Notes: generated by a model not told the origin, from the letters alone. Shown: positions 5,319-20,866, numbered from the stretch's first letter. The stretch is DNA of 21,220 nucleotides from Delftia acidovorans NBRC 14950 (GCF_001598795.1 NZ_BCZP01000046.1:1-21220), one strand, 5' to 3'. Numbers and translations are program-made.

Positions 5319-5415
5319 GTGCGTTTCCTCCTTGTGTTGGAAATCGCATGGTATGGCAACGCGGCGAAATAGGGGGCGCCGACTGGGAGGCATGGCCGGC
5401 GCCCGGTGTCGATTC

Positions 5416-5712
5416 TCAGATGGCGAGGCTTGCGCGGTCCTTGCTTTCTATCCACTTGGGCGGCTTGCCGCGGCCTGTCCAGGTGGCGCCGGTTTCTGGG
5501 TTGCGGAATTTGGGCTCTCCCACGCTGTGCTTGCTGGCCTTGCCGGGTTTGCTCTTGGCGGAGGGGAAGACATCCTCCTTCGCCAGGCCATATAGCTGCA
5601 CCATCGCCTTTGCTTCAGCGATCGCATCGGTTTTCGCATTCTGGATGAGTGCGTCGATTTTTTTCTCAAGCTCGGCTTTTTGTTGCAGCAGGGCCTTGTA
5701 GTCGGATGTCAT
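5416..5712 (-). CDS. H-NS family nucleoid-associated protein
   Basis: 98 aa. It has an N-terminal coiled-coil (LLQQKAELEKKIDALIQNAK) and the C-terminal DNA-binding block KFRNPETGATWTGRGKPPKW typical of H-NS/BpH3-like proteins. An AT-rich upstream region lies at 5713-5800. Confidence 0.85.
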   Translation of the reverse strand: MTSDYKALLQQKAELEKKIDALIQNAKTDAIAEAKAMVQLYGLAKEDVFPSAKSKPGKASKHSVGEPKFRNPETGATWTGRGKPPKWIESKDRASLAI

Positions 5713-5874
5713 GGCAATGATGATTTTCAGTGGGAGATGCGCGTGTATATCACGGGTATGAATATTTTGTAAGTTATCAGTAAGAAAAAGAGTGTGCGGA
5801 TGCGGGAATGGTCACCAGCGACGTAGCGCGTTCAGAACAGGTGATGGTGATGGTTGGGGCGATGAGGTGCGCCC

Positions 5875-5903
5875 AAGAAAAAGGCCAGCGGCTTGCGCTG
5901 GCC
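5875..5903 (-). terminator. Rho-independent terminator (minus strand) with no obvious gene upstream of it
   Basis: GGCCAGCG-caagc-CGCTGGCC followed by TTTTTCTT when read on the minus strand. Confidence 0.6.
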
Positions 5904-6220
5904 TGGGAAGAAAGAGCCGGTGCTTTTTGAAAGCTTCCTGGGGGAATGAGAGGGAGGGAGGAGGAAATGCCCCAGACCCGGCAATGAAACGGTGCAGAAA
6001 CTGATGGCGATGATGCCTGCCGTGCGCAGGCCGGCCGATGGGTGAGAGGCGAGTCTGCACGTAGGACGGGGGAGCATCTGTCGAGTCACAGGCTGGTCAT
6101 CTCCATGCGCGATAAACCGGGAGTTGCGCAACCATGGGGGGGAGCGCATTGTTTTTTTATTGCGCATCCATGTCCATTGCTGCCACGCTGATTCCATTTG
6201 TTTTCAACCCGGCCAATCCG

Positions 6221-9200
6221 ATGAGTGCGCCATTGCAGCGCCATCGTTGGCGCCTGTATGGTGCGGGCCTGCTTCTTTCGGCATCTGCCGGGGTATGGGC
6301 GCAGGTTCCCTTCAACGGCACCTACACGCAGGATTTCGACACCCTGGCCACGTCCGGGACGGGGCTGGCCTGGGCCAATAACAGCACCTTGCCGGGCTGG
6401 TTTCTCTTCAACAAGAACCTGGCATCCATCACCTCTTACGTCGCTGGCAATGGGGCCTCCAACACCGGCAGCTTCTACAGCCTGGGGCTGAGCACGGACC
6501 GCGCCTTGGGGGGCGTGGCATCTGGCGGGGCCTACTTTGGCAGCCCGGCCCAGGGCGCTGTAGCGGGTTGGATTGCGCTGGCGGTGCGCAATGACACGGG
6601 TGGCTCGGTCGATGGCATCACCTTGCGATTCAACGGCGAGCAATGGCGCAACGGTGGCAATACGGAACGGCAGCCCATGGTGCTGGAGTACGGCATGGGA
6701 GCCAGCTTTGCCGACGTGCCTGAATGGCTGCCTGCCGGTGCGAACTTCAATTGGCAATCGCCTGTTGCCACCGGCACTGCTGCCGCCGTGGACGGCAATG
6801 TGGCCGGCCGGGTGAACAATGTGGGCGGTGATCTGCGCGGCCTGGGCTGGGCGCCAGGTGCCACGCTGTGGCTGCGTTGGGTAGAGCTCAATGATGTGGG
6901 CAACGACCACGGCCTGGCCATTGATGACGTCTCCATCACGCTGGCGCTGCCCGACACCACGGCGCCCACGCTGCAGGCAAGCATTCCCGCAGCGGCGGCG
7001 ACCGGGGTGGCGCTGAATCCCGAAATCAAGCTGAGTTTCGATGAGGCGGTGAAGCCCGGTAGCGGCAGCTTCGAACTGCGCCAGGGCGCCACGGTGGTGG
7101 CAACGCTGCAGGCTGGCGATGCGGCGCAGGTGAAATTCAGTGGCTCGACCATCACGCTCAACGCGGGTGTGCGGCTGGCGGTCAATACGCCCTATAGCCT
7201 GGTTTCCGTGGGCGAGCCGGTGTTGGATACCTCGGGCAATGCGTGGACCGGCACAACGCTGGGCTTCACGACAGGAGACGAGCCGCCGGTCACCAGGATT
7301 TCTGCGGTCCAGGGCTCTGGCGATCAGTCTCCTCTGGTGGGGCAGAAGGTGACGGTGAGTGCCGTGGTGACGGCCTATATGCCTGGACTGAGCGGCTTTT
7401 TCGTGCAGGAAGAGGCGGCAGACTCCGATGGCGATGCTGCTACCTCGGAGGGCGTCTTTGTCTACTACGGCAACGCCAATCCTGGCGTGGACGAGAGCAC
7501 GGTGGGCAAGCTGGTGCAGATTTCCGCCTCGGTGAGCGAGTTCCGCAATCAGACCCAGCTCAGCTCCATCACGGACTTCGTGGTCCGCGGCGCGGCGGCC
7601 TTGCCGGAGCCGGTGCGCATCGCACTGCCTGTCAGCGACATGGGGCAATGGGAACGTCTGGAAGGCATGCGTGTGGAGGTGGCATCCGCCACCGCAGGCG
7701 GCAAGCTGGTGGTGAGCGACAACCGCACGCTGGGCCGCTACGGCAATGTCACGCTGTCTGCCGATACGCCGTTGGCGCAGTACACCGAAGTCAACGCTCC
7801 CAGCGTGGCGGGCTATGCAGCCTACGTGCAGACGCTGCAGCGCAGCCAGATCATTCTCGATGATCGCTCGGGGGCCCAGAATCCCGAGTTCGTGCCGGGT
7901 CGTGGCGGCTTGCCGCTGTCGGCGTCCAACACGCTGCGCGCTGGCGATGGCGTGGACCGCGTCATCGGCGTGCTCGACCAGTTCTTTGATGCTGCCGCCA
8001 GCGAGCCCTATCTGACCAGCTACCGCGTGCAGCCCACGCAGACGCCGCAGTTCACGGGAGCCGCGCGACCTTCAGCCGCCGAATTGCAGCAGGCCGTGGG
8101 AGCGGCCACGCTCAAGATCGCATCGGCCAACGTTCTCAATTTCTTCAACCTGACCGGCGCCACAAGCGGCTCTTCCCAGGTGATGTTCAACACGCCGCTG
8201 GGCAACCAGCAGGGCATTCGCGGCGCCAACAGCATTGCCGAGCTGGACAGGCAGCGCGCCAAGATCGTGGCCAATCTGCTGGGGCTGGGCGCCGATGTGT
8301 ACGGCCTGATGGAGGTGCAGAACAATGGCTTTGGCCCGGGCAGCGCCATCCAGGATCTGGCCGACGCCTTGAATGCGAGTGCCGACAAGCCTGCCGGTGC
8401 CGTGTATGCGGTGGTCAAGGCGCCCTTCAGTGAGGCTGCAGGCACGGTGCCAGGTGCGGGCACGGTGCCAGGTGCGGGCACGGATGCCATTACCGTGGCC
8501 ATCGTCTATCGCAGCGACCGCGTCACGCCGATGGGCAGCGCAGCGGCACCCAATGTCTCTACCTACGATGCCTTCAACGGAAGCATCGGCGGAGCCCGGG
8601 TGCCGATTGCGCAGACCTTTGCCGTGGGCGGCAGCACGGAGCAGTTCACGCTGGTGGTGAACCATTTCAAATCCAAGGGCAGCGTGCTCGGTGGCGCAGG
8701 CAATGCGGACGTGCTCGACGGCCAGGGCGCCAACAACGCGGCGCGCGTGAAGACGGCCCAGCAACTGAGCAACTGGCTGGCAACCCGGCCCACAGGCGCG
8801 ACCAGCCCCCACGTGGTGCTGGTGGGCGATTTCAACGCCTATGCGAAGGAAGACCCCATCACCACGTTGGAGACCGGCGGCTATGTCAAGGTCTCCCAGG
8901 GGCTGTCCTATGCATTCGACGGAATGTGGGGTTCGCTGGACCATGTGCTGGTGAGCACCAGTCTGCAGCCCAGCGTGGGGCGTGCGGTCAAGTGGGCCAT
9001 CAATGCCGAGGAGCCCGAGGTGCTCGACTACAACGTCGAGTTCAAGTCGCTCGATCAGCAGGCCAGCTTCTATGCGCCCACTGCCTATCGTTCCAGTGAC
9101 CACAACCCCATTCTCCTGGGCCTGAATTTCGGTGGCCGGGCGCCCTCGTTCAGTGGCGTGCCTGCCAATGCGCAGGCGGTGGTGGTGGGGCAGGCGGCCG

Positions 9201-13467: not shown

Positions 13468-14496
13468 TCAGCGTGTCGCATCAACCTTCAACGCGCGTTT
13501 GTGGCGCACATAGTCGGCGGTCTGGGACTGGGTGGAATGAGCGCCCATGCGCTGCGCCTCCATGATCCCGCGCCCACGGTCCACATCGGTCAGGGCCTTG
13601 CCGCGCAGGTCATGGAAATGGCAGTCCATCACGCCGGCCCGCTTCACTGCCCGCTTCCAGGCGGTTGATGCGCCCGAGTAGGTGTAGGGCTGGCCCTGCA
13701 GCGTGCAGAACACGAAAGCGGGGCTCTGGTTGGGCAGGGCCCGCAGGCGGTCCACCACATCGCGCAGGCGCTGCGTCCATGCGATCAGGACCTGGGCGCC
13801 AGTCGAGCCCTCGGTTTTGGCCGGCTGGAACGCGATGCCCTGCTTGCCCACATCGCTCCACCGCAAGGTCAGTAGGTCGCCAATGCGCTGCCCGGTCAGG
13901 TAGGCCATGTCGATCAGCGCGCAGATCGTGTGGCCGGAGCGCGTGCGCTTGCCGTCGTCCCCGTACATCACGGCCACCTTGATGCGGCGCACCTCGGAAT
14001 CCGTGATGTACCGCGTGCGCGCCTTCACAGACATGGTCTTGAGGCTGTCCACCGGGTTCGTGCCTGGCGGCCGGTAGCCTTTCTCTTCGGCGAACCGCAT
14101 CAGCTCTCGCAGCATGGAGCGGTAGGCGTTATAGGTGCGCGGCTTGTCGCTGAAGTGTTTCAGGAACTCCACGATGGCCGGCGCGGTGACCTCCTGCGCG
14201 CGAAACTCCTGGAACGATTCGGAGATGGTGCGCGTTTGGTAGGCATCGTTAGCCTGCGTTTTCACGCTGTGCCTGCTGCCTACCTCAGCGAGCCAGTCCG
14301 CGATCAGCGCGGGCATGCTGTCCCGGGCCATGTCTGCCTGCTCCATATCGGCCAGGGCGCGGTATAGAGCAGGTAGGCCGTCACGGATGGTGGATAGGCG
14401 CGTCCAGATCCGCCTTTTCCCTTCGGCGCGGACATGCCAATAGGCGCCCCCCTTTTCGTAGACACGCTTCGGTAGGTCGCTGCGGCGCTTGCTCAT
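13468..14496 (-). CDS. int: Tyrosine-type phage integrase
   Basis: 342 aa from the ATG at 14496, with GGAGG upstream and an ATGA overlap with the upstream gene's stop. Catalytic-core blocks are present: LTGQRIGDLLTLRWSDV (Arg), HFHDLRGKALT (H-x-x-R), AHSTQSQTADYVRH (Tyr). It lies adjacent to the tRNA fragment. Confidence 0.9.
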   Translation of the reverse strand: MSKRRSDLPKRVYEKGGAYWHVRAEGKRRIWTRLSTIRDGLPALYRALADMEQADMARDSMPALIADWLAEVGSRHSVKTQANDAYQTRTISESFQEFRAQEVTAPAIVEFLKHFSDKPRTYNAYRSMLRELMRFAEEKGYRPPGTNPVDSLKTMSVKARTRYITDSEVRRIKVAVMYGDDGKRTRSGHTICALIDMAYLTGQRIGDLLTLRWSDVGKQGIAFQPAKTEGSTGAQVLIAWTQRLRDVVDRLRALPNQSPAFVFCTLQGQPYTYSGASTAWKRAVKRAGVMDCHFHDLRGKALTDVDRGRGIMEAQRMGAHSTQSQTADYVRHKRALKVDATR

Positions 14497-14782: not shown

Positions 14783-16810
14783 TCAAGCGGCGACTTCGTA
14801 GATCAGCGCCTCATGGGCGAAGTTGGCGCGGGCCAGGGCCTCGGCCAGCGGCGGGCAGACGCTGTTGCCGCACATGCGGACTTGGGCGGTGGTGCTCAGG
14901 TCGATGAGGGGCACGTCACGCGGGTCGCTGGCCTGCTTGCCGTCGCGGAACAGCAGGGCCGGGTCGGGCACGCGCTCGAAGTGGTAGTCGCGTGGAAATC
15001 CTTGGGCGCGGAACAGCTCGCGTGGCTTGAGCATGCGCAGCGTGATGTCCACCAGCACCCACCACTGCCCGGCATGCCACATGAGCACCAGCTCGGCTGG
15101 GTCGGGGAAGTGCTCGGGCAAGTGCTTGTGCAGCAACTCGGCGCAGAGCCGGGCGCGCTCAGCATGCTCGGGCGCCAGTGTTGCGGCCGGCACCTGGATG
15201 GTCTGCACCAGACCCATGCGCGCCTTGGTGGGCACGGTGTGCATGGGCTCGCTGCAGGCGCTGTCCTGGCCGCCCTCGCTGTAGTACTTCACCAGGTAGG
15301 CCGTGATCAGGCGCTGCTGGGTGCCGCTGGATGTGACCGTGGACAAGGGGTCGTCCGCCGCGCGCCCGTCGCCGTTGTAGAACCCGCCGTTGGCCTGCTC
15401 CAGGCATGCGGCCACCATGGCCTGCTCGCCCCGGTTGGCGCCGGTGACGGTGCGCGGGGGCTCGCGCGGATCGTTGCCGCTGCGCTCGCCGTGGTGGGTG
15501 AGGTGCGTCAGTTGTGCCGAGACAATGCCCATCTGGATGCCGGTGCTGGGCCGCTTGGGCGTACCGCCAGCTGTTACCGTTGGCAGCGGCGCGTCTACCG
15601 CGCTGCCCACGCTTCCGGTGTTGAACTTCGTGATGTGGGCCATGGCCAGGGCGCTTTTGACTCCGCCGGCCACCACGGTCCCCAGTGGGGCCTCGATGTC
15701 CTGCACGCGCGGCTGCTGGCCCTCGCGCTCGCCGTAGCCGATGGTGACCAGGTTGGCGCCCACCAGGGCGTGGTGTGTGCCGCTGGCCGCCACGGTGGAC
15801 AGCGGAGCATCCACGGCGTGGCCGACCAGATGCTGCTCGGACGTGCCTTGCAGCGGGGCCAGCGTGGGCGCCACGACCGAGAAGTGCCCGCCCTTGACTT
15901 GGGCACAGATCGTGCGCAGGGGCGCGTCAGCGGGCATGGTGCGCTGGTTGCTGGCGTTGGCGTGCTCGTTCAGATACGGCGCCTGGGCGCCGACGATGTA
16001 CGGGCTGTCACTGGTGAGGACATGCTTCCAAAGGCCCTTCGCCACCCGGCGCATGGTGTTGTCCACCAGGGCACGCTTGCGCCCGAATACGCTTTCGGCT
16101 GGCAAATCGAAGTCGATGCACTCGGCGGCCGTGCGGTGCGCAGCCAGCTTGCCAGCGATCACACGGCGGTCGGTTGGCTCGGCATGAGTCTGCTCGGGCC
16201 ATACGATGGGCAGGCCATCCCGGCGTGCCACGAGGAACAGGCGCTTGCGGATCGTGGGCGTGCCGTGATCGCTGGCGCGCAGCTCGCGCCAGTCCACCTG
16301 GTAGCCGTGCATGCGCAGCTGGCGCACGAACGACTGGAAGGTCTTACCCCGTCGTGCGGGGTCCGGCCGGGCCTGGCCATCGGGGCCGACGAGGATCGGC
16401 CCCCAGGTCTGGAACTCCTCCACGTTCTCAAGCATGAGCACGCGGGGCTTGCACATTGCCACCCAGCGCATGCCCACCCAGGCCAGGCCCCGGATGTGCT
16501 TCGAGACGGGTGTGCCGCCTTTGGCCTTCGAGAAATGCTTGCAGTCTGGAGACAGCCAGACCAGTGCCACGGGCTGATTGCGCGTGACCTCAATGGGGTT
16601 TACGTCCCACACGCTCTCGCACAGGTGCAGCGTGTGCGGGTGGTTCGCTGCGTGCATTGCCAGCGCCTCGGGGTCGTGGTTGATGGCGATGTCCACGGGC
16701 CGGCCGAATGCAGCTTCGAGACCGGTACTGGTGCCGCCTCCTCCTGCAAAGTTATCGATGATCAACTCGCCAGGGAATGCGAGTGGCAATGTAAAGGCAT
16801 CACGCTTCAT
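14783..16810 (-). CDS. DNA (cytosine-5)-methyltransferase, large phage type with reiterated putative target-recognition modules
   Basis: 675 aa from the ATG at 16810. Motifs: I IIDNFAGGGG, IV LSPDCKHFSKAKGG, VI LMLENVEEF, VIII TIRKRLFLVA, IX RELFRAQGFPRDY, X MCGNSVCPPLAEAL. Between motifs VIII and IX lie seven degenerate modules, each with P-x-x-T-V/I. Confidence 0.9.
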   Translation of the reverse strand: MKRDAFTLPLAFPGELIIDNFAGGGGTSTGLEAAFGRPVDIAINHDPEALAMHAANHPHTLHLCESVWDVNPIEVTRNQPVALVWLSPDCKHFSKAKGGTPVSKHIRGLAWVGMRWVAMCKPRVLMLENVEEFQTWGPILVGPDGQARPDPARRGKTFQSFVRQLRMHGYQVDWRELRASDHGTPTIRKRLFLVARRDGLPIVWPEQTHAEPTDRRVIAGKLAAHRTAAECIDFDLPAESVFGRKRALVDNTMRRVAKGLWKHVLTSDSPYIVGAQAPYLNEHANASNQRTMPADAPLRTICAQVKGGHFSVVAPTLAPLQGTSEQHLVGHAVDAPLSTVAASGTHHALVGANLVTIGYGEREGQQPRVQDIEAPLGTVVAGGVKSALAMAHITKFNTGSVGSAVDAPLPTVTAGGTPKRPSTGIQMGIVSAQLTHLTHHGERSGNDPREPPRTVTGANRGEQAMVAACLEQANGGFYNGDGRAADDPLSTVTSSGTQQRLITAYLVKYYSEGGQDSACSEPMHTVPTKARMGLVQTIQVPAATLAPEHAERARLCAELLHKHLPEHFPDPAELVLMWHAGQWWVLVDITLRMLKPRELFRAQGFPRDYHFERVPDPALLFRDGKQASDPRDVPLIDLSTTAQVRMCGNSVCPPLAEALARANFAHEALIYEVAA

Positions 16811-16835
16811 GTGCGAGTTCCTGTGGTGGAAATGC

Positions 16836-16867
16836 AAAAAGCCCGAGAGGCGACTGCCAAGCGGGCT
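16836..16867 (-). terminator. Terminator-like hairpin (minus strand) immediately upstream of the methyltransferase start
   Basis: On the minus strand, AGCCCG-cttggcagtcgcctct-CGGGCT is followed by TTTTTG, about 25 nt before the MTase ATG. It lies in the 97-bp gap between the MTase and the AT-rich cassette. Confidence 0.5.
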
Positions 16868-16907
16868 ATGGGGGGTTAGGATTCGCCACTCATGAAAGGA
16901 GAGGGCG

Positions 16908-17567
16908 ATGGATGTTGATCAATTGATTGCTGGTATTGGTTCTGCGGTTGTCCTGGCCGAGTCTCAGAACAACTGCTCATTCCCGTGCATGACTAAATCG
17001 GAGTGGGCGAGTTGGGCTCAGGCTATAACAGCAATATTGGGTATATTGGTTGCGGTTATTACATTTGTTGTATCTTCATATCATCGGAGAAAAGAGAGAT
17101 ATGTAGACAATATTATGGTGTGGGACAGAGACAGAAGAATTGCAGAGGAAATGATCACCCAATTTTCTGGATCTCTTAAGTCTGTTTATAACTGGCTGAA
17201 TCCGAAGAATGGTGGGGGTAGAGAGTTGCTGGATTTACTATATAGGAAAGCCCTCCTGGAGGGCCAGTGTGAGAAAATAAAACAATTGCCACTGTACGTT
17301 CTGACGCAATCGGAGTGTCAATATTCATTTCTAATTCAAGCGCACGCGCAAAATTTGATTGCTGCAATGTCTATGATTGATGGTGAATATTTTGAAAATG
17401 CAGAACATGATATTATTATAAAAGAGGATAGGTTTCTAATTCTAGATAAAATATTTATGGATAAATCAAATGGCGCGATAAATGCAATGAGTAATATTGA
17501 AAGTGGATTTAATAAAGAGCGAATTTTATCTAGGGACGGATTTTTGCAATTGCGTGGAGATAAATAG
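16908..17567 (+). CDS. Membrane-anchored protein of unknown function (cassette gene A)
   Basis: 219 aa. The ATG at 16908 is preceded by AAGGAG, and an alternative ATG lies at 16989. One strong TM helix (WAQAITAILGILVAVITFVVSSY) is followed by a basic stop-transfer (HRRKER) and a soluble domain of about 150 aa that looks helical. Codon usage is AT-rich and matches the rest of the cassette. Confidence 0.65.
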   Translation: MDVDQLIAGIGSAVVLAESQNNCSFPCMTKSEWASWAQAITAILGILVAVITFVVSSYHRRKERYVDNIMVWDRDRRIAEEMITQFSGSLKSVYNWLNPKNGGGRELLDLLYRKALLEGQCEKIKQLPLYVLTQSECQYSFLIQAHAQNLIAAMSMIDGEYFENAEHDIIIKEDRFLILDKIFMDKSNGAINAMSNIESGFNKERILSRDGFLQLRGDK

Positions 17568-17618
17568 TTTCAGTGCGATGGCTAGTGAATCAATGGTTAA
17601 CGAAACCCTAGATTTGCC

Positions 17619-17822
17619 GTGAATCCCGTTCATCAGGTTGCTACGGTCAGTGTCGATGAGTTAGGCACTATCAGAATTGAATCTATCGAAGCGCCTCCAC
17701 GCTTGCGCATGTCCAAGGAATTTAGGCTAGTTCAGCCTATTAATAAGCCGTCTGAACAATTGCTTGCTGATTGGGAAATATGCATTTCATGGATTTCCAA
17801 AGAAAAACAACAGGTTAAATAA
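17619..17822 (+). CDS. Small protein of unknown function (cassette gene B)
   Basis: 67 aa with a GTG start and no clear SD. It lies 51 nt after gene A and ends 27 nt before gene C. The sequence is protein-like (MNPVHQVATVSVDELGTIRIESIEAPPRLRMSKEFRLVQPINKPSEQLLADWEICISWISKEKQQVK). Confidence 0.45.
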   Translation: MNPVHQVATVSVDELGTIRIESIEAPPRLRMSKEFRLVQPINKPSEQLLADWEICISWISKEKQQVK

Positions 17823-17849
17823 CTGCAATTTAATACTTAGGAGATAGCC

Positions 17850-19097
17850 TTGACTCTAAATGCAACCCTTCAATTGTCCGACAGCATAGGACTTGGTCGC
17901 TTCATATATTTCAGTGGACTCGAATATCCAGTTTTACTGACTCCGACAGTACACGGTGAACCACTTTTGACGGCGCAGAGTATTTACTACATCGATCGTT
18001 TGGAATCAGTTGCAAACATTCGAGGTAAAAGTAATGATGATATGCTGCCAGAAGATAAAATCGAATATCTAATGGATAATTATTTATTCGAATTTAGTAA
18101 ACTTCATCCTGAATCTCGAGTGACATTCAAGGTTGCAGACTATGTATTCTGGAGGGACGATCCAGACTCAAAATATTCGCTGGCTGATCATCGTTGTACA
18201 AGCACATTAACGCTTGATCAGAGCAATGATTCCGCCGTTTTAAGCATCGAAGCTATCGACGAGGCAGATGACGTCGACCTCGGTGACTGGGATATTGGAA
18301 GGAACTATAGCTTCTCGTGTATTAGCGAATTTATTGCAGGGACGGCGTCTTTGCTTGAAAAGAAGGTTCTAGTAAAAATGCTTCCAGATGAACATAGAGA
18401 TGGATATTTTGGAAAATTAAGAGTTGTTAAAGCAGAGGGTTCCTACATCGACTTCTTTCAAGCGCGTGCGTTAGAGTATATAAGTGTAAGAAATATAACG
18501 AGTGATACGAAACATATTTCCTTAAATAAAAGTCAAATGCCGGGTGCCGAATCATCTCTTCCGGTCGAGCACATCGTAACAACCAGGATGCATAATCCTG
18601 TACTGTTATCTCATTTCTTTTCTGGAATTAAAGAATTGAATCCCCTGAAGGGGTACCTTAGTTACTATAACGTTCTCGAGTACTACTTTGAAGAAGCCCC
18701 TTTAATGCTTGATCGCTCAGCGAGGACGGAGCTAGAGCAGTTGAAATGCACCCTTGAAATACTGGTATCCGACGCCGATGTGAAGGAAATGCTGACGACG
18801 CTAACCGTGCAATCGAAGACTAAGGTTTTTGAGGATTTGCCAACTTCGTCTGGAGTGCCGCTTAAGCGTCTTGATGATCAGGCGGCCAGTATTCGCAGCG
18901 AGCTTGCCAGATGGCTGTACGACATCCGTTGTGCGGTAGTGCACTCGAAGAAGACACGAAGGGGTGTCGCAGTCGCGTCATTTGAACCGTACTCAACTAC
19001 AACCAAGAATTTGGATGTCGCTGTTTTTCTTGTTAGGAATCTCGCCATAAAATGCATCGAAAAGGATACGGATCTGCAAAATATGATACCAACTTAG
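17850..19097 (+). CDS. HEPN-like (R-x4-H) domain protein with an uncharacterised N-terminal domain (cassette gene C)
   Basis: 415 aa. The TTG start at 17850 is preceded by AGGAG. The C-terminal roughly 170 aa look helical, with LSYYNVLEYYFEEAP early and WLYDIRCAVVHSKK (R360-x4-H365, nt 18927-18944) about 50 aa from the end. That is the usual position of the HEPN RNase motif. The N-terminal roughly 240 aa look beta-rich and are unrecognised. Confidence 0.7.
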   Translation: MTLNATLQLSDSIGLGRFIYFSGLEYPVLLTPTVHGEPLLTAQSIYYIDRLESVANIRGKSNDDMLPEDKIEYLMDNYLFEFSKLHPESRVTFKVADYVFWRDDPDSKYSLADHRCTSTLTLDQSNDSAVLSIEAIDEADDVDLGDWDIGRNYSFSCISEFIAGTASLLEKKVLVKMLPDEHRDGYFGKLRVVKAEGSYIDFFQARALEYISVRNITSDTKHISLNKSQMPGAESSLPVEHIVTTRMHNPVLLSHFFSGIKELNPLKGYLSYYNVLEYYFEEAPLMLDRSARTELEQLKCTLEILVSDADVKEMLTTLTVQSKTKVFEDLPTSSGVPLKRLDDQAASIRSELARWLYDIRCAVVHSKKTRRGVAVASFEPYSTTTKNLDVAVFLVRNLAIKCIEKDTDLQNMIPT

Positions 19098-19495
19098 GGC
19101 GTGGTTTTGAACTTTAGGTTTATCACGAGTATGTACGTTTCCAAGGAAAATATTAGCGTAATGCAGTTGATAAAGTGCTATAAGAATAGGGCTTCTAACG
19201 CTTCCCTGTGCTCGTGCTTCTCACTGGCAGTTGGGATGATACGAAGGATTTGCCGGTCTTTGTCTACGATCAAGTTTAGCAGTTGGCTTGAAAGAAGCAG
19301 TCCCTAGAGGTTTCGTATCCAGGGGCTTGAGGCACCGCCTGGACTTGGCGTGCACCCTCTTACTTGGTGTATCTGCAATGCGTTGCTTAACTGTTAGCCA
19401 TTTCGATCAGGAATTGATCTCGGCCCTTTCCGTTGATCCAGTTCGGGAGGCTTGCCCCGGCCAATTAAGTCTTGGAGCCCTCTGAAGCATGTCGA

Positions 19496-19717: not shown

Positions 19718-20067
19718 CGCGTGGGCTCCTCGTCGCTGGTGCGGTGGACCAGGCCCTGCCAGTGCTGGCCCGGCGGCAGTGGGGTGGTGTGGCCGGACCC
19801 GTCTGCCGTGGGCTTGGGCAATGCGCCTTGCAGCGCTGGCGAGTCAAGAAATCCCACGCGCGAAGCCTTTGTGATCCGCGCGAACTCGATCTCTGCGCGG
19901 GAACTGGCCACCAGGGTCTGGCCGATGTCGGTGATGGCGCGGGCGATCTGCGGCGACGTAGCGCCGCTGCGCAGATCCTTGATGGTCTGGAGCAGCAGCG
20001 ATTGCAGCTGGCCCATGCCGCTGGTTTCAGGCGGCGTGGGCTGGATGTCGGTTGTGGTGGTGGTCAT
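19714..20067 (-). CDS. Hypothetical phage protein (117 aa)
   Basis: The ATG at 20067 gives MTTTTTDIQPTPPETSGMGQLQSLLLQTIKDLRSG.... An alternative ATG at 20016 would remove the 41-nt overlap with the HNH gene. GC-rich, on the same strand as the neighbouring phage genes. Confidence 0.5.
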   Translation of the reverse strand: MTTTTTDIQPTPPETSGMGQLQSLLLQTIKDLRSGATSPQIARAITDIGQTLVASSRAEIEFARITKASRVGFLDSPALQGALPKPTADGSGHTTPLPPGQHWQGLVHRTSDEEPTR

Positions 20068-20866
20068 GCTCGGCTTTCTCAATTTCCTTGATGTCTTGGT
20101 CCAGCTGGCGTGTGAGTTGCCACACGGGCAGCAGGTCGATGGGTACGGCGGCCCCGTTGCTGCGGGACAGGTCTGTGCGTGAGATGCAGCGCAGGTTGTT
20201 GATGTCGAAATTGGAGGTGTCGCCGTCATGGAAGATGACGGCATGTCCCTCCGGAATAGGGCCGTGGTGCTGCTCCCAGACGATGCGGTGCACCAGCGCC
20301 CAGCGGTTTGGCTCTGCCACCTTGCGCTTGAGGTAGCGGGCTGCATGTGGCAGCGCGCGTGGCGGCGTGGTCCAACGCTCGGTGCCCACCGGCACCCAGG
20401 TCGGCGGCCTGTTGCCGGCCTTGAAATGGCTTTTTCCCTGCTCCACGCTGTACCCGTGCTTCCCCTTGTTCCAGGGTTTGAGCCCTGCAGTGAACTGCCC
20501 CTGCCGCTGGCCCTGGCGCAGCATGGAGGCGCGATAGGTCTGGGCCATCACGGCAGGGGTCTTGTGCAGTCCCAGGCGGCTGGCCCTTGTGGCGATGTCT
20601 CGCATGGGCATGCCCAGCAGCTCGCCCAGGTCCTCGTTGAGCATGTCGGCATACAGCAGCTGCAGCAGGTCATCTAGGTCCGTCCAGCGGCCGGTGCGCG
20701 CGGTCTTGGCCCCGGGGGCCTTCTTCACACCCAGGTCATGGGCGCGCTGCTGCACATGCCTGGCCGAGCGCTGCAGGTGCGCAGCGACGGCCGCTGTGGG
20801 CTGGGAGGGGTACTGCGCCCGCAGGTAGGCGTCATCCTCGGGCCGCCATGGCGTGTTCTTGCTCAT
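20027..20866 (-). CDS. Phage HNH endonuclease with N-terminal helix-turn-helix/SANT-like repeats
   Basis: 279 aa. The HNH_3-type block is ALVHRIVWEQHHGPIPEGHAVIFHDGDTSNFDINNLRCISR. The N-terminus has W-x-PEDDAYLRAQY-type repeats. Its start overlaps the upstream gene's stop (ATGA). Confidence 0.85.
   Translation of the reverse strand: MSKNTPWRPEDDAYLRAQYPSQPTAAVAAHLQRSARHVQQRAHDLGVKKAPGAKTARTGRWTDLDDLLQLLYADMLNEDLGELLGMPMRDIATRASRLGLHKTPAVMAQTYRASMLRQGQRQGQFTAGLKPWNKGKHGYSVEQGKSHFKAGNRPPTWVPVGTERWTTPPRALPHAARYLKRKVAEPNRWALVHRIVWEQHHGPIPEGHAVIFHDGDTSNFDINNLRCISRTDLSRSNGAAVPIDLLPVWQLTRQLDQDIKEIEKAEHDHHHNRHPAHAA

Follow-up and report, generated by a model that had tools for sequence, protein, structure and literature searches.

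An AT-rich cargo slot of a Delftia acidovorans prophage holds a resident membrane-protein gene and a candidate single-gene HEPN defence protein

The locus

The window analysed here is a stretch of 21,220 nucleotides (nt) from Delftia acidovorans NBRC 14950 (NZ_BCZP01000046.1:1-21220). It contains an AT-rich block of three open reading frames (ORFs), A, B and C, within a prophage. Gene C is a credible new single-gene HEPN defence candidate, and gene A a curious hypervariable resident gene. The G+C content was found to be 0.36-0.48 across ~16.8-19.4 kb, as against 0.63-0.71 on both flanks (400-nt windows). All three ORFs lie on the + strand, separated by exactly 51 nt (A-B) and 27 nt (B-C), and all neighbouring genes of the block, including those for an integrase, a methyltransferase and an HNH endonuclease, lie on the - strand. 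The original prediction, made from the sequence alone, had described such a block and read it as a candidate three-gene anti-phage system; G+C windows and ORF calls bear out the description, and the proposed Shine-Dalgarno sites of A (AAGGAG) and C (AGGAG) are present. The ORFs and the parts of C are as follows.

16908-17567, + strand: gene A, 219 amino acids, ATG start, AAGGAG before the ATG, single-pass membrane protein
17619-17822, + strand: ORF B, 67 amino acids, GTG start, no Shine-Dalgarno site
17850-19097, + strand: gene C, 415 amino acids, TTG start, AGGAG 6 nt before the TTG
17850..18584, + strand: N-terminal alpha/beta domain of C, amino acids 1-245, from the secondary structure of the AlphaFold 2 (AF2) model
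18597..19085, + strand: C-terminal helical domain of C, amino acids 250-412, MauJ-type and HEPN-like from MauJ/DzbB matches and helix order
18678-18680, + strand: E277 of C, predicted helix-2 acidic residue
18927..18944, + strand: Rx4H motif of C, codons R360-C-A-V-V-H365, predicted catalytic

Distribution of A, B and C

Co-occurrence of the three genes in unrelated genomes had been set beforehand as the test of a three-gene system, and no such co-occurrence was found. Among 62 loci, C was observed alone in 44, A alone in 13, and A, B and C together in five. These five are copies of the same D. acidovorans element, at 98.7-100% nucleotide identity, and therefore count as one observation. The 44 C loci outside the Delftia element comprise 22 species genomes, contigs of the closest relatives (58-74% identity), Pseudomonas and Paraburkholderia genomes, Klebsiella and Escherichia coli prophages, and IMG/VR prophages. 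None of these 44 loci contains a homologue of A or B, and none of the 13 other A loci contains a homologue of B or C. An all-against-all comparison of neighbour ORFs at the 22 genomic C loci revealed no common family, and a Pfam scan of 121 neighbours around the same loci revealed no family in more than two of them. On this genomic evidence C, like ApeA, is a single-gene unit, solo in 44 loci and with no conserved neighbour. Sequence comparison thus indicates that A and C are independent units, not one system. The division of labour originally proposed for the trio (sensor, neutraliser and RNase) has no comparative support, B being an ORFan and neither A nor B lying beside any other C. Genes that lie close together in a prophage slot and are alike in composition do not thereby form a system; here independent cargo genes are stacked in the slot.

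ORF B itself is doubtful as a gene, because it has no ribosome-binding site and no homologue but itself among 5.8 billion proteins. When the A-C spacer was shuffled by dinucleotides, 2.6% of the shuffles gave a + strand ORF of at least 67 codons, so that B is only weakly above chance as an ORF, and its G+C by codon position is similar to that of A and C. The nucleotide similarity of C to its closest relatives covers only 17838-19082, excluding B; it begins 12 nt before the C start, so B is not conserved upstream. B may be a leader sequence of the C insertion, and is probably not a functional partner.

Anatomy of the slot

In the D. acidovorans prophage, the AT-rich block corresponds to a cargo slot with variable contents. 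In comparison with sister prophages, backbone homology was observed to stop within A, at 16910-17069 depending on the relative, and to restart at 19405-19425; the left recombination boundary of the slot thus falls inside the A coding sequence. The sister prophages thus set the limits of the slot more exactly than the earlier coordinates, 16871-19480. Its non-coding parts are the following.

16832..16907, no strand: divergent intergenic region upstream of A, left anchor, 75-97% identical (blastn) to L034, L045, L047-L049, L052 and L053
19098..19404, no strand: AT-rich non-coding tail downstream of C, 307 nt, without counterpart in sister prophages or C-homologue loci and with no terminator-like fold
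19405..19462, no strand: right anchor of the slot, a 42-58-nt block 79-90% identical in L045, L047-L049, L052 and L053

The left anchor consists of the intergenic region and the 5' end of A (16832 to 16910-17069). The intergenic part, 16832..16907, presumably carries the promoter and ribosome-binding site of A; no consensus sigma-70 site was found in it. In relatives, the right anchor lies 12 to ~780 nt past the stop of the A-like gene, and full backbone homology to L034 and L048 begins there. The slot holds an A-like gene alone in the same-backbone sister prophages L034, L045, L048, L052 and L053. In L031-L033 it holds an A-like gene followed by a 200-amino-acid protein and a putAbiC-domain protein in place of B and C. 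Because nucleotide comparison fixes the slot anchors, B, C and the 307-nt tail (17568-19404) are read as an addition downstream of resident A.

The slot resembles the published cargo (moron) and defence hotspots of P2/P4-like prophages in its fixed position, conserved flanks and varied AT-rich cargo including abortive-infection (Abi)- and HEPN-type genes. Unlike those hotspots, it has a resident hypervariable gene, A, and a boundary within a coding sequence.

The right-anchor block is kept in at least eight related prophages whatever the cargo, and is without notable RNA fold or terminator features; it may act as an anchor for recombination or have a regulatory function. A 21-nt inverted pair (17529-17549 / 19288-19308, 81% complementary, core TCTAGGGAC / GTCCCTAGA) flanks the B-C insertion and, given its length, is by rough estimate probably due to chance. 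The other repeats around the block are short two-copy matches, likewise judged by rough estimate to be chance.

Gene A, a resident with a variable C-terminal domain

Gene A is an independent cargo gene and a resident of the slot in this prophage lineage. Its product is 100% identical to DR66_5988. Only two full-length homologues were found among 5.8 billion proteins, both in sister prophages with the same backbone; one lineage has the 200-amino-acid and putAbiC proteins beside the A-like gene, and the other has nothing after it. Nine further prophages match A over the first 50-67 residues only, in proteins of 174-239 amino acids. This conserved N-terminal module (~amino acids 1-60, with ~50 residues strongly conserved) has the form C..CM[TS]KSEW[AS]xWxQA, the two Cys first, followed by a transmembrane helix. 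The C-terminal domains beyond it are not alignable between prophages. Most A relatives form a single-gene AT-rich island, with G+C back at the backbone level directly after the gene.

The A protein, read as a small protein of the inner membrane, consists of one transmembrane helix and then a helical-bundle domain of ~155 residues. Its AF2 model (predicted local distance difference test score, pLDDT, 78.5) shows a long helix and a four-helix bundle, and was found to have no significant match in the PDB. Judging from the positive residues after the transmembrane helix, the C-terminal domain is probably cytoplasmic. A role in superinfection exclusion or another phage-directed function may be guessed at. 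A bolder suggestion makes A one of a class of prophage membrane proteins whose N-terminal anchor is fixed and whose C-terminal specificity domains can be exchanged; the conserved 5' end of A would double as the recombination anchor of the slot. The pattern of the A family recalls the conserved-N, variable-C layout of polymorphic proteins.

Gene C and its HEPN-like domain

Gene C has 265 homologues, including a 100% match, D. acidovorans DR66_5987, and its TTG start is supported by homologues that begin at the same aligned residue. In the AF2 model (pLDDT 82, predicted template modelling score, pTM, 0.78), the N-terminal half is alpha/beta and the C-terminal half helical. The N-terminal domain was found to have no match in Pfam, PADLOC, PHROG or NCBIfam, and none by Foldseek in PDB or BFVD. 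In an exhaustive HMMER search, the full-length C family was found to comprise 38 clusters at E<=1e-30, and the wider superfamily 584 clusters (50% identity), which mostly have only the C-terminal domain in common. Superfamily members mostly have other N-termini in place of the N-terminal region of C, for which a sensor or regulatory function is suggested.

The C-terminal domain is related to two named models. Against Pfam MauJ (PF17419) C itself scores 20.8 bits, with a cut-off of 28 bits, and the model matches 24 of 25 family members at E<=0.1 (best 9.6e-7). A MauJ match was also obtained for eight of the ten distant relatives scanned, four of these eight lying above the 28-bit threshold (31.2-35.1 bits). 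The PADLOC model for DzbB matches all 25 family members (best 1.1e-8) and C itself at E=8.1e-7; on C this match spans amino acids 254-368 only (~115 residues), corresponding to model positions 191-308 of 341.

Residues E277, Y357, R360, H365 and K367 were observed to be invariant across 18 diverse superfamily members of 20-57% identity, and each of the 22 relatives inspected has the motif in the form R[NC]xxxH[ST]K. Within the C family, R360 is invariant and H365 at least 90% conserved. In the model, the helices follow the order H1, H2, insert, H3 (with the motif at its end) and H4: E277 lies within the YNVLEYYFEEA motif of helix 265-277, and the Rx4H motif closes helix 348-364 and is followed by a hairpin and a long last helix, 383-412. 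In the published description of HEPN domains, helix 3 ends with Rx4-6H, helix 2 carries an acidic residue, and inserts occur between these two helices (PMC3710099). Because helix order, motif place and helix-2 acid all match this description, the C-terminal domain is read as HEPN-like, in agreement with the earlier suggestion of a HEPN-like C with R360 and H365 in its motif. Foldseek of C against the PDB returned a HEPN protein, 2hsb, only at rank 23 (probability 0.11); PDB sequence-profile searches with the full-length family and C-terminal superfamily profiles returned nothing meaningful, and the C model has no significant match to solved structures or viral models. The HEPN assignment of C is therefore a well-founded inference and not a demonstrated fold match.

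Two proteins of 600-658 amino acids, P0146 and P0147, have the N-terminal domain of C (query 3-290), R[CN]GVIH near residue 403, and ~200 extra C-terminal residues without Pfam match. They are an extended architecture of the C family.

Genomic contexts of the C family

The C family is sporadic, occurring in Proteobacteria, Acidobacteriota, Chlorobium and Bacteroidota, and almost every member has a lower G+C than the locus around it. Each homologue is monocistronic and is preceded by an intergenic region of its own. Among their neighbours are Shedu SduA_C, putAbiC, BrxE, reverse transcriptase, DUF3800, TIR/SEFIR and Pnkp-Hen1 RNA repair genes, and PADLOC identified GajA (Gabija), DpdF, JukB, PsyrT, PD-T4-6, MkoA and AriA among the 121 neighbours. 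Some homologues are cargo of Tn7-like elements; a tblastn search of plasmids with C found none.

In 186/P2-like prophages of E. coli and Klebsiella, the C homologue lies directly after cI-int on the same strand, at the prophage-host junction, and because of this position it would be expressed in lysogens. The homologue WP_047674709.1 occurs in E. coli A15 (L063 3405-6248) and in Klebsiella phage Kp4882-2 (L044), and is annotated in RefSeq as a hypothetical protein. Only two of 5426 complete E. coli genomes have a C homologue. These prophage homologues would make testing easy in standard hosts.

A C homologue of 59% identity (L028 6001-7230; L028-L030) is convergent with an RlaP/Pnkp/Hen1 RNA-repair operon, 255 nt away. 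The RlaP/Pnkp/Hen1 system repairs tRNA cut by ribotoxins. This neighbour, found in a single lineage, hints that the C family targets RNA.

Comparison with named systems

ApeA is the closest in general design. Like C, it is a stand-alone protein, a few hundred residues long, whose N-terminal region is non-catalytic and whose C-terminal HEPN-type domain carries Rx4H, and both occur in defence and prophage cargo positions. The action proposed for C would also be the same, namely infection-activated cleavage of RNA (tRNA) leading to abortive infection. ApeA, however, is mostly alpha-helical with three domains, whereas the N-terminal half of C is alpha/beta and its HEPN domain belongs to the MauJ/DzbB sequence family. 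The relationship to ApeA considered in the original prediction was not detectable by Pfam or hhalign: C has no match to ApeA_NTD1 (PF18862) at E<=1 and none to HEPN_Apea (PF18739), its family profile aligned with genuine ApeA at an hhalign probability of 0.1, and the superfamily C-terminal profile gave no significant alignment with the ApeA HEPN region, only the Rx4H residues being aligned. An identity of C with ApeA is ruled out by the missing domain matches and by the lack of hhalign similarity beyond the motif.

DzbB of the Dazbog system is the only defence-database model matched by C, over the part containing YNVLEYYF...RxxxxH. Unlike DzbB, C is solo and has a different N-terminal half, the match being confined to the C-terminal ~115 residues. 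No DzbA/DUF262 partner is present in the window, A and B being without DUF262 match, and DUF262 is not recurrent (in more than two of 22 loci) around C homologues; C as a Dazbog component is ruled out by the absence of this partner. Dazbog, composed of DzbA (DUF262) and DzbB, was reported to respond to methylated phage DNA via DUF262 (PMC10952713), and nothing here suggests such a response for C. Transformation with a dzbB deletion of Dazbog did not succeed, perhaps owing to toxicity (10.1101/2022.05.11.491447).

The C-terminal domain of C and its relatives also matches the Pfam model for MauJ (PF17419), a family that takes its name from a gene of unknown function in a methylamine-utilisation cluster. 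Neither the window nor the other loci inspected showed genes for methylamine utilisation in the neighbourhood of C. In the literature searched, no paper ties MauJ or PF17419 to phage, defence or HEPN, and none describes the C family or the DzbB fold.

Solo HEPN defences that cut tRNA anticodon loops have been described (ApeA and DARNA preprints). DARNA/PD-T7-3, PrrC, RloC and HepS are single-protein, infection-activated, oligomeric HEPN RNases with active sites occluded until a trigger appears, and a similar behaviour is proposed for C. DARNA differs in its opposite domain order, with an N-terminal HEPN domain and a C-terminal helical ssDNA (single-stranded DNA) sensor. C has no PADLOC match to the PD-T7-3, PD-T4-2 or PD-T4-5 models. 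An assignment of C to DARNA was rejected on the grounds of domain order and of the missing PD-T7-3 match.

Proposed function of C and alternatives

We consider it somewhat more probable than otherwise that the slot holds two unrelated, separately acquired units, A and C, and that C is a new single-protein HEPN abortive-infection candidate. In this scheme a stretch of ~1.85 kb carrying C (17568-19404) would have been inserted downstream of resident A. The C protein would be made in the lysogen in an auto-inhibited state, and its N-terminal domain would detect some cue of infection. In a dimer or oligomer, the HEPN domains would then form a composite active site of E277, R360, H365 and K367, which would cut cellular RNA, most likely tRNA or mRNA, so that translation stops and the infection aborts. 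This mechanism is proposed because of the analogy with the single-protein HEPN defences ApeA, DARNA/PD-T7-3 and PrrC; the RNase activity is suggested by the motif and the defence role by the genomic context, and the N-terminal sensing is likewise proposed. If C is confirmed as a defence gene, it would represent a new family among single-protein HEPN immune nucleases, with a new sensor domain in its N-terminal half, and would provide a function for the Pfam MauJ domain and a handle on the uncharacterised DzbB of Dazbog. A wider proposal, which is tentative, is that the MauJ-type domain (PF17419) is an unrecognised, widespread HEPN branch (~584 clusters, DzbB perhaps included) fused to many N-terminal sensors, the C family being a new single-protein abortive-infection system with a novel sensor fold.

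Several observations weigh against a defence nuclease acting alone. The residue after the catalytic Arg is Cys in the C family, instead of the usual N, D or H. In view of the dzbB deletion result, DzbB-type domains may act as regulators or antitoxins that restrain a partner, rather than as effectors. The defence-island association of C is qualitative only, and several loci have housekeeping neighbours. Within the Delftia prophage, moreover, the three ORFs lie close together on one strand and are alike in composition, no terminator was found between them, and they may be co-transcribed.

The last observation bears on a single system made up of all three genes, of the defence or toxin-antitoxin-like kind, in which A would act at the membrane as sensor or effector, B would serve as a small neutraliser or adaptor, and C would be the HEPN RNase. 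The common strand, the 51- and 27-nt gaps, the similar AT-richness and the codon-position G+C of B are compatible with such a system; no terminator-like site was found between the ORFs, and the trio is kept intact in several D. acidovorans genomes and read sets. The trio is nevertheless known from a single element, A-like genes are normally alone in the slot, B lacks both homologue and Shine-Dalgarno site, and A or B was found in 0 of 44 other C loci and B or C in 0 of 13 other A loci, which makes a three-component system quite improbable. A narrower version, in which the prophage would be stabilised by B and C as a toxin-antitoxin or addiction module of two genes, with C as HEPN toxin, B as small protein antitoxin and A unrelated, is highly improbable. 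B does lie immediately upstream of C on the same strand at 27 nt, HEPN toxins paired with small antitoxins have been described, HEPN-MNT being one case (PMC3710099), and the dzbB deletion phenotype hints at toxin-antitoxin-like behaviour in relatives. Yet no B-like ORF or conserved small neighbour lies by any other C homologue, the similarity of the closest relatives reaches only 12 nt upstream of the C start codon, C homologues, preceded by intergenic regions of their own, are monocistronic, and B has no homologue, ribosome-binding site or MNT-like domain. B as antitoxin was rejected because no conserved adjacent small gene occurs near C homologues.

More weight is due to the view that C is MauJ-like and acts in regulation, metabolism or the phage life cycle; its Rx4H motif would be non-catalytic or serve no defence, and the block would be ordinary prophage cargo. 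MauJ, from a methylamine-utilisation cluster, is the only curated family matched by C, no significant match to characterised HEPN nucleases was obtained, and some C loci lie among housekeeping genes or toxin genes of type VI secretion (T6SS) and contact-dependent inhibition (CDI) systems. This reading is unlikely, given the absence of methylamine-utilisation genes near C, the sporadic occurrence of C, at low G+C, in several phyla, where it is carried by prophages, Tn7-like elements and defence islands, and the strict invariance of E, R, H and K at 20-30% identity, which argues for catalysis. That A is a holin or lysis protein, with the block serving lysis or lysogenic conversion, can hardly be credited. 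In searches of A, B and C against NCBIfam and PHROGs the only matches were those of the transmembrane segment of A to holins, and these are weak (phrog_20 E=0.0013; in Pfam, Phage_holin_2_3 E=0.0044). The matches span 23-28 residues of the transmembrane helix and fall below curated cut-offs (Phage_holin_2_3 17.4 vs 28.8 bits), and A consists of one transmembrane helix and a ~155-residue helical bundle, located between integrase/methyltransferase and early genes rather than in a lysis cassette. The holin assignment was rejected on account of the sub-threshold, transmembrane-only matches and this location.

Transcription signals

In a promoter/terminator scan of the block, hits were no more numerous than expected from shuffles. 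RNA folding of the A-B spacer, of the 3' tail of C and of the right anchor showed nothing notable. Among the sigma-70-like sites of the region, the best, at 17392-17419, lies inside the 3' part of A (TTGAAA, 16-nt spacer, TATTAT, 10/12 matches); such sites are no more frequent than in shuffled sequence. This site could drive B and C apart from A.

Prophage setting

The block lies ~3.4 kb inward from the integrase end of the prophage, and the first 13 kb of the window are host chromosome. The principal genes around the slot are the following.

13468..14496, - strand: prophage integrase, PF00589 gene call in the identical Delftia loci L035-L037 and ORF; left prophage end, host chromosome to the left
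14783..16837, - strand: C5 cytosine DNA methyltransferase, PF00145 1.5e-25, phrog_116 1.5e-95; left backbone flank of the slot
20027..20866, - strand: HNH endonuclease, PF13392 2.1e-19, phrog_1891 2.2e-50; early region, right backbone flank, conserved in L034 and L048

The gene order is integrase, a 76-amino-acid gene, methyltransferase, slot and early genes; to the right of the block, genes of 73 and 117 amino acids on the - strand precede the HNH endonuclease. This order, the putAbiC protein in sister slots and an ApeA in a nearby slot support the prophage cargo position originally assigned to the block. A tRNA scan for an attachment site found none, and megablast of the block against 50,697 phage records gave no match.

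The methyltransferase has 684 amino acids from a TTG start (675 in the NCBI call, with the start at 16810), and is 96-97% identical in the sister prophages L031-L033 and L047. Its position is itself variable: some sister prophages have a 96%-identical C5 enzyme and others a 35-38%-identical one (L045 and L053 compared), and L034 (281-1264) has a DUF5131 protein in place of the methyltransferase next to the slot.

The prophage lineage also has a second cargo slot. In L031, a metagenomic relative, this slot was found to hold a genuine ApeA (ApeA_NTD1 and HEPN_Apea) at 5344-6957, and in the Delftia prophage the equivalent position (L035 15750-16130) is occupied by a 126-amino-acid gene on the + strand.

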